Shown here piece after piece: positions 57,463 through 57,519 of a stretch of 64,000 nucleotides of DNA (position 1 is the first letter of the stretch; the number at the start of each line of letters is the position of its first letter). Source of the stretch: Escherichia coli (GTDB lineage Bacteria > Pseudomonadota > Gammaproteobacteria > Enterobacterales > Enterobacteriaceae); assembly GCF_003018235.1 (NCBI RefSeq), contig NZ_CP027437.1; one strand, 5' to 3'. Made by a program: the position numbers and the translations under genes. A model generated the notes under the pieces. The model was not told the DNA's origin and ran no database searches. It saw only the letters and a program-made list of their open reading frames with translations.

Positions 57463-57519
57463 TTTAGTTATACGGCTTTAGTTATACGTCAGCCCGTATA
57501 ACTAAACGTATAACTAAAA
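57463..57519. repeat. four copies of CGTATAACTAAA (two inverted, two direct) just upstream of the integrase gene
   Basis: TTTAGTTATACG-gc-TTTAGTTATACG-tcagcc-CGTATAACTAAA-CGTATAACTAAAA; same motif as at 47393-47417. Confidence 0.65.

Follow-up and report, generated by a model that had tools for sequence, protein, structure and literature searches.

The window, i.e. the whole 64-kb stretch of DNA that was analysed, carries an island of about 10.3 kb (~47324-57654) of the PICI/P4-like satellite type. It is inserted at the 3' end of proL (tRNA-Pro), the sole tRNA gene within the window. All island genes are located on the minus strand between 47621 and 57431 and have a single transcription direction. 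They encode an integrase, a 68-aa AlpA/Vis-like excisionase-regulator, an Icd-like protein, a DUF4222 protein, a RepA-type helicase followed by iterons, a second tyrosine recombinase, a PerC-like protein and a prohead protease-capsid fusion. The order int-alpA-pri/rep, the unidirectional transcription, an origin 3' of rep, the size of about 10 kb and the dedicated attachment site agree with the description of PICIs (PMC6092414). Judged from its genes, the island would be classed as a Gram-negative PICI. In most of 5426 complete E. coli genomes yejO, proL and yejM are contiguous and contain no insert. Strain SCU-111 (L002) carries the same island with 98.8% identity; in other strains the ends are shared and the cargo is another one. 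A scan of the island with Rfam yielded the tRNA only. The following features are of main importance for the integrase end:

56190-57431, minus strand, P4-type tyrosine integrase of 413 aa with N-terminal arm-binding domain
55478-55684, minus strand, AlpA/Vis-like small HTH protein of 68 aa (PHROG 66 and 2790, 'excisionase and transcriptional regulator')
57572-57607, minus strand, island-borne terminator hairpin behind proL, conserved in related islands
57650-57726, minus strand, tRNA-Pro(GGG), proL, the 3' end of which is the integration target (ARAGORN, Rfam and RefSeq annotation of empty sites)

A 12-bp motif was originally described with two inverted and two direct copies upstream of the P4-type integrase gene and with two direct copies about 10 kb away beside the yejO terminator. 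Both clusters were recovered. All four copies at 57463-57518 are exact, and of the distant pair one copy is exact and one contains one mismatch. The six putative arm-type 12-mers are:

57463-57474, minus strand, inverted copy nearest to the int ATG, exact CGTATAACTAAA, 31 bp upstream of the ATG
57477-57488, minus strand, second inverted copy, exact CGTATAACTAAA, at -57 relative to the int ATG in the de novo family detection
57495-57506, plus strand, int-proximal tandem copy 1, exact CGTATAACTAAA, counterpart of P4 repeat 3942-3953
57507-57518, plus strand, int-proximal tandem copy 2, exact CGTATAACTAAA, counterpart of P4 repeat 3954-3965
47393-47404, plus strand, int-distal tandem copy 1, CGTATAACCAAA, one mismatch to CGTATAACTAAA
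47405-47416, plus strand, int-distal tandem copy 2, exact CGTATAACTAAA, retained by all related proL islands

Five exact copies of CGTATAACTAAA are present in the window, compared to 0.00 expected from 100 dinucleotide-preserving shuffles. Beyond the six sites the 64-kb window contained no copy with one mismatch or fewer, and the island interior between the two clusters none with two or fewer. The int-end cluster of two inverted and two tandem copies occupies the segment 31-87 bp upstream of the int start codon (57431, minus strand). Its distance to the tRNA 3' terminus is 131-187 bp, with 131 bp between the tandem copy at 57507-57518 and the CCA end. The far-end pair is found within the island at 62 bp from the left junction, beside the yejO terminator hairpin (47282-47312). 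It has the same orientation as the int-proximal tandem pair, from which it is 10,102 bp apart. Of 5426 complete E. coli genomes, 457 contain the 72-bp int-end cluster, and the remaining ~4970 gave no match. This number is about equal to that of the genomes with the integrase lineage (440 of 5426, at least 80% of the query covered). Thus, by the window search and by the 5426 E. coli genomes, in which the cluster occurs only with the integrase lineage, the motif proved to be confined to the element, a point on which the original prediction had depended.

The junctions of the island were set by aligning the empty site L001 with both island ends. From this alignment attB is GGGATTTTTGGTCGGCACGAGAGGATTT; the right junction reads GGGCGATTTGGTCGGCACGAGAGGATTT from 57640 onward and the left junction GGGATTTTTGCACGAGAGTAGTTT from 47314 onward. 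Since the empty-site alignment fixes the two junctions, both repeat clusters can be assigned to the inside of the element. The repeats differ in sequence from the core and are placed on either side of the crossover core. A 7-bp crossover segment TTTGGTC at 57648-57654 is predicted. With the features below, the functional limits of the attachment site would be roughly 57463-57664 plus 47317-47441:

47317-47331, no strand assigned, left junction core (attL), ATTTTTG-CACGAGAG, shorter by 3 bp than the canonical GGTC allele and by 5 bp than attB
47349-47361, minus strand, IHF-like site with one mismatch between left core and int-distal pair, a consensus match only
47417-47441, plus strand, conserved block right after the int-distal pair, ATGATTTGCTGAAAAAGTGTACAAT
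57584-57596, perfect IHF-consensus match within the proL terminator hairpin, between the right core and the int-proximal arm, a candidate by consensus only
57647-57664, no strand assigned, right junction core (attR), overlapping the tRNA-Pro 3' end (empty site L001 compared with both junctions)

The RTTTGYTG core of the block at 47417-47441 recurs after the pair in L006, L077, L082 and L089, including diverged ssrA elements. It is conserved although the surrounding sequence is unrelated, and could be a further protein site in the arm. Behind the left-end repeats, an apparent promoter with a terminator corresponds to no known small RNA, and its conservation ends at the closest relative.

The distal tandem pair is 71 bp away from the CCA-end T in attL, and 74 bp in the undeleted allele of SCU-111. 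The length of the left core varies at one spot, between the invariant GGGATTTTT and CACGAGAGTA. At this spot nine islands carry nothing, G, GG, GGTC or GGTCG, and attB carries GGTCGG (compared were window 47317-47331; L002 924-945; L003 1117-1136; L004 1116-1137; L006 4613-4635; L008 7993-8012; L009 2336-2352; L010 ~1432-1452; L011 ~4766-4786). Even near-identical islands differ, with G in the window versus GGTC in SCU-111 and GGTC in L004 versus GG in L008. Footprints of abortive integrase cleavage, slippage between the GG repeats, selection of locked-in copies or a polymorphic attP core are possible causes. The GGTC allele is the one predicted from the 7-bp crossover segment TTTGGTC for attP GGGCGATTTGGTC-CACGAGAGTAG. 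The window allele lacks 3 bp of the crossover segment; therefore this copy may excise poorly. The island copy is possibly locked in by this loss, and its arm sites may no longer be used. A gapped-pattern search for the excised attP junction gave 0 matches in viral contigs and 0 in metagenome contigs. The left-arm sequence had three viral-contig matches, all of them integrated forms. Since the excised junction was absent from the viral and metagenome contigs searched, the joined attP arrangement is a reconstruction.

The domain structure of the integrase was compared with known families. Pfam domains Arm-DNA-bind_3 (PF13356, residues 8-94, E 5e-23), Phage_int_M and Phage_integrase were detected. 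The first 105 residues match the arm-type binding domains PDB 3ju0 and 3jtz (residues 8-102; E 7e-20 and 1e-11), i.e. the N-domain aligns with the arm-binding domains of the HAI7 and HPI integrases. Szwagierczak et al. 2009 reportedly described these two arm-type binding domains (PDB 3jtz, 3ju0), which presumably originate from large pathogenicity islands of Yersinia and Pectobacterium. The identity to P4 Int is 34% over 404 aa (E 7e-82). Because arm-binding, central and catalytic domains are present, the integrase appears to be designed for contact with accessory sites at a distance from the crossover.

Two explanations had been offered for the 12-mers: arm-type integrase sites in the P and P' arms, or operators of a regulator. 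With high confidence we regard the six 12-mers as arm-type (accessory) sites for the P4-type integrase which the island itself encodes. The first explanation is strongly supported by the arm-binding N-domain, the position of the repeats, their P4 layout and their co-variation. It was also correct that the repeats tie the two island ends together. By the proposed mechanism, excision as a circle would join the island ends, and the 12-mers would then flank the crossover core. On the integrase side of such a circle two inverted copies would be followed by the tandem pair, some 130 bp away from the core; the pair on the opposite side would have a distance of about 74 bp. A heterobivalent integrase would contact the 12-mers with its N-terminal Arm domain and the core at the tRNA-Pro 3' end with its central and catalytic domains. 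Bends in the DNA, probably introduced by IHF, would let one integrase molecule bridge arm and core and so form the recombination complex. In an integrated island each junction has its share of the sites, and bridging would bring the junctions together for excision. Help probably comes from an AlpA/Vis-like factor on adjacent CCGG-type repeats.

From the proL terminator to the int ATG, the space is largely taken up by the four int-proximal copies, so bound integrase probably represses int, as in P4. For P4 Int, repression of its own promoter is described (PMC7286903, citing Pierson and Kahn 1987 and Piazzolla 2006). A scan for sigma-70 promoters upstream of int detected none to which the self-repression could be assigned. 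Position, number, orientation and specificity of the motif, the integrase domains, the likeness to P4 and the co-variation of both ends are thus established by the analysis; integrase binding, bending, the function in recombination and the self-repression are inferred. In the excised circle, the one-way cargo operon would continue into int by way of distal arm, core and proximal arm. Therefore, int is possibly under different promoters in the integrated and in the excised state. An int promoter differing between these two states was recently described for ICEKp1 (PMC13023037).

For the second explanation, a separate factor encoded by the island or a helper, e.g. the AlpA/Vis-like HTH protein, would bind the 12-mers as operators and co-regulate both ends. 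The int-proximal copies between terminator and int ATG are indeed in the place expected for an operator. In related elements int or excision is a target of AlpA-family proteins (PMC6092414), and P4 Vis represses Pint (PMC7286903). However, no copy with up to two mismatches was found at any other island promoter; CGTATAACTAAA is absent from the alpA leader and from every other island promoter region. The far-end pair has no gene start nearby, the closest gene ending at 47621. Furthermore, the alpA leader contains a different repeat, TCACCGGAACACGCCGGATTA, which recurs beside the 12-mers:

55692-55720, plus strand, CCGG-type repeat pair TCACCGGAACACGCCGGATTA in the alpA leader (repeat family D16), distinct from the 12-mer
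57520-57560, plus strand, three (A/T)TCCGGYG-type repeats between arm sites and terminator, the motif pair being common with the alpA leader
57624-57645, plus strand, two further TCCGGTG repeats against the core, same CCGG-type family

The AlpA/Vis-like protein shares 35% identity over 37 aa with P4 Vis and is likely an excision and induction factor. The repeat of its leader thus has five further copies between the 12-mers and the core, and these CCGG-type repeats are candidate sites of the AlpA/Vis-like excision factor. Islands with the other AlpA allele (L004, L008) carry ACCGT/ACGAT-type repeats in both places instead. This co-variation of CCGG-type repeat and AlpA allele is suggestive, the motif being loose. 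Since the regulator seems to have its own CCGG-type sites, the 12-mers would be left to the integrase. L007, a P4-like satellite at ssrA, shares only the integrase with the window island; its replication and late genes are P4-type. With a regulator of 33% identity over 40 aa and a wholly different cargo, its motif is still only one base off CGTATAACTAAA. Hence the 12-mer follows the integrase, and not the cargo or the AlpA-like regulator. Sites of recombination directionality factors are typically direct repeats on a single arm (PMC7498355), unlike the 12-mers, which are found on both arms and in both orientations. Operators of a separate factor are thus very improbable. From the operator explanation only the probable self-repression by the integrase, as reported for P4, is left. 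Upstream of the AlpA-like gene, at 55749-55790, there is also a near-perfect palindrome of 21+21 bp (AAAAACAGTACCTACCGTTTT / AAAACGGTACCCACTGTTTTT), which L003 and L006 also have in altered form. A role as operator or as bidirectional terminator is possible.

The arm sites were further compared among related islands. Islands at proL with other cargo, either capsid and small terminase or DUF927 primase, ProQ and SSB, keep the layout of two plus four repeats. The inverted copy nearest to the int ATG is conserved in L002 and L003 and present as variants in L004, L006 and L008. Position 7 of the motif is A in the window, G in L006 and C in ssrA elements, and it changes jointly at both ends. In L006, with an integrase of 84% identity, CGTRTAGCTAAA is found at both ends, the int end being CGTATAGCTAAA / CGTGTAGCTAAA and the far end CGTATAGCTTAA CGTGTAGCTAAA. 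An alternation of A and G at position 4 within the pair is mirrored between its ends. L007 (integrase 57% identical) and about ten other ssrA elements contain CGTATACCTAAx CGTATACCAATx at both ends. The repeat plan of L007 is that of the island, with at least one inverted copy, a tandem pair, the core at the tmRNA gene and a tandem pair; the spacers are 110 and 76 bp. Across proL, ssrA and P4 elements the distal pair is located 71-76 bp from the core.

These data also bear on the assumption that the 12-mers serve int self-repression only and have no recombination role, with the far-end pair left over as a relic or arisen by a coincidental duplication. The int 5' region holds four of the six copies, and the repressor action of P4 Int on its own promoter (PMC7286903) would fit this assumption. 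A relic would not be expected to keep its position at 71-76 bp from the core and to co-vary with the int-end copies, as the far-end pair does. Besides, integrases of this class are described as dependent on their arm-binding domain for mobility (PMC8138268). We therefore consider self-repression alone to be very unlikely and keep to arm-type sites with a probable additional repressor function.

The dominant 12-mer family was also sought de novo in the 150 bp upstream of int, for every related locus with flank. Each locus showed a tandem pair, at positions of about -57 to -90, together with one or two inverted copies on its ATG side. Eleven loci, named class X, have the unrelated repeat TCGTTGGGCCTA in the same layout. 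In most IMG/VR proviruses the sequence stops right at the start of int or short of the far end, and hence few of them show both arms. An exact search for the tandem 24-mer CGTATAACTAAACGTATAACTAAA in one genome per species gave nine genomes (L092-L100), all of Pasteurellaceae and Orbaceae: Gilliamella, Lonepinella, Aggregatibacter, Mannheimia, [Haemophilus] felis and Orbaceae. Where flank was present, the 24-mer is located upstream of P4-type integrases with 37-56% identity to that of the island. In Gilliamella (53%), Lonepinella (40%) and Mannheimia (~40%) the repeats are directly upstream of the integrase gene; a tandem pair and inverted copies are present about 110 bp from the tRNA 3' end. 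Because the 24-mer is exact at 37-56% integrase identity, the arm motif is far better conserved than the integrase protein.

Replication iterons or packaging signals (pac/cos) of the satellite were considered as another function of the 12-mers. Origins or cos sites of satellites can be short tandem repeats near the ends, and P4 contains several repeat classes. For the island, a separate and typical iteron array was found at 52238-52430, where origins of PICIs are expected (PMC6092414). It consists of three CCTCACTTTTACTCCTCACTTTTT copies at 83-85 bp spacing and a 23-bp palindrome, directly 3' of the RepA helicase gene, and is the probable replication origin. Moreover, the 12-mers follow the integrase across RepA helicase, DUF927 primase and P4 alpha-like primase modules and are also kept with different head genes. 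A function as iterons or packaging signals is thus extremely unlikely, and binding by the integrase remains the preferred explanation.

Two further observations concern the cargo. A segment of ~90 nt is duplicated with 84-85% identity at 48054-48142 and 50603-50690. On the minus strand each copy stands after the terminator hairpin of the capsid-fusion or the PerC gene and before the next gene. The segment had no Rfam match and may be a repeated promoter/leader module or a structured RNA. The second tyrosine recombinase (337 aa, window 50709-51994), for which no arm-binding domain was noted, adjoins the PerC-family gene. It is missing from the sister islands L003, L004 and L006.

The arm motif was then considered together with the choice of the core. 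The A-type 12-mer is combined with proL in the window island and with the tmRNA gene in L059, and classes A, C and X are all paired with the ssrA core; the specificities for arm and core can thus be separated. L091 (19650-20100) harbors two satellites in tandem at ssrA which differ in arm class: a complete C-type element is followed by an ssrA core remnant, a terminator and a class X tandem pair with no integrase behind it. Overall identity of the N-domain failed as predictor of the arm class. Class X N-domains are ~57% identical to that of the window and go with an unrelated motif, and class C N-domains are ~48% identical and go with nearly the same motif. Because N-domain identity does not predict the class, the link between protein and DNA would rest on few residues. 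A comparison of residues gave the following sets:

Class A, to which the distant Pasteurellaceae proteins belong: Y23-T24-L25, K36-P37, W43-R44-F45-(S/N)46-Y47-Y48
Class C: L/F23, H26, T37, R46, Q48
Class X: Q24, Y26, T32, S37, Q44
P4 class: K24, M25, A26, plus other changes

A few positions in the beta-strands of the N-domain track the arm class, which is only suggestive of a role in specificity. As a tentative idea, which we consider possible but doubtful, the 12-mer and a few PF13356 beta-strand residues might form a readable code that evolves separately from core choice. Arm classes would then keep satellites at one site from excising each other, and the A-class 12-mer would have been kept from Enterobacteriaceae to Pasteurellaceae/Orbaceae. 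This reading is based on the position-7 series together with class X, on the occurrence of A, C and X at ssrA and on the tandem in L091. If true, divergence of arm classes would be an orthogonality device, by which several satellites could reside at one chromosomal site without mutual excision. Each with its cognate N-domain, the position-7 variants (A, G and C), the class X repeat and the motifs of P4 would provide a natural series for studying DNA reading by arm domains of the P4/SXT type. Such a series could aid the prediction of cross-mobilising co-resident islands and the design of orthogonal integration tools.

Among known systems, lambda attP (P1, P2, P'1-P'3; sites for IHF, Xis and Fis) shares the logic of a heterobivalent integrase with the island (PMC2951348; PMC9791396). 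In both, accessory sites unrelated to the core are found on both arms, with adjacent tandem copies. Sites for bending proteins and excision factors from arm to core are a further likeness, for which the island has candidates only. The N-domain belongs to another family in lambda, PF13356 having an extra strand and helix (PMC8138268). Number, sequence and spacing of the sites and the orientation of int to att are all different.

In attL of KplE1 (CPS-53), with IntS and TorI, arm-type and excision-factor sites overlap the int promoter near the tRNA gene, and negative control of int via these overlapping sites was demonstrated experimentally (PMC2951348). KplE1 differs from the island in integrase lineage and motif (its P' site contains TAAA), and for the island such a regulation is only probable.

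PICIs of the EcCICFT073 type have in common with the island the order int, alpA, pri/rep with the origin 3' of rep, one-way transcription, a size of about 10 kb, a dedicated chromosomal site and a PerC-type gene (PMC6092414). The protease-capsid fusion gene and the second tyrosine recombinase distinguish the island from them. Arm sites of PICIs are not mentioned in the searched passages of PMC6092414, nor are arm sites in the satellite paper PMC10111431. CGTATAACTAAA had no mention in the searchable literature, a literal search matching unrelated primers only.

The closest parallel is the att site of P4. Its GenBank record NC_001609 annotates 12-bp "attP arm sequence repeats":

3915-3926, inverted, arm repeat overlapping the int start codon
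3942-3953 and 3954-3965, int-proximal tandem arm repeats
4078-4097, core, beginning with TGG
4151-4162 and 4163-4174, distal tandem arm repeats, orientated as the pair 3942-3965

The comparison with P4-type arm sites suggested along with the original prediction thus resulted in matching layout and spacing. Both elements have 12-bp repeats and the sequence of inverted copy at the int start, tandem pair, core and tandem pair with the same orientation. The tandem pair is separated from the tRNA CCA end by 112 bp in P4 and 131 bp in the island, and the CCA end from the distal pair by 73 bp and 71 bp, respectively (74 bp in the undeleted SCU-111 allele). In both cases the core is located at the tRNA 3' CCA end, the int 5' end points toward the att site, and the integrases are homologous (34% identity) with a common domain set. 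Several differences were found. The repeat sequences are unrelated (P4 ~TTGGGGGCAYAT versus island CGTATAACTAAA). P4 has one inverted copy at the int start and the island two, and unlike P4 the island has no repeat copy inside int. The target is leuX for P4 and proL for the island. The int-proximal spacer of the island is 19 bp longer and holds a terminator, and the cargo is PICI-like and not P4-like. In general, this kind of feature is known since the P4 att site was sequenced. The motif of the proL island is an addition to it, by which a PICI-type satellite would use the intasome plan of P4.
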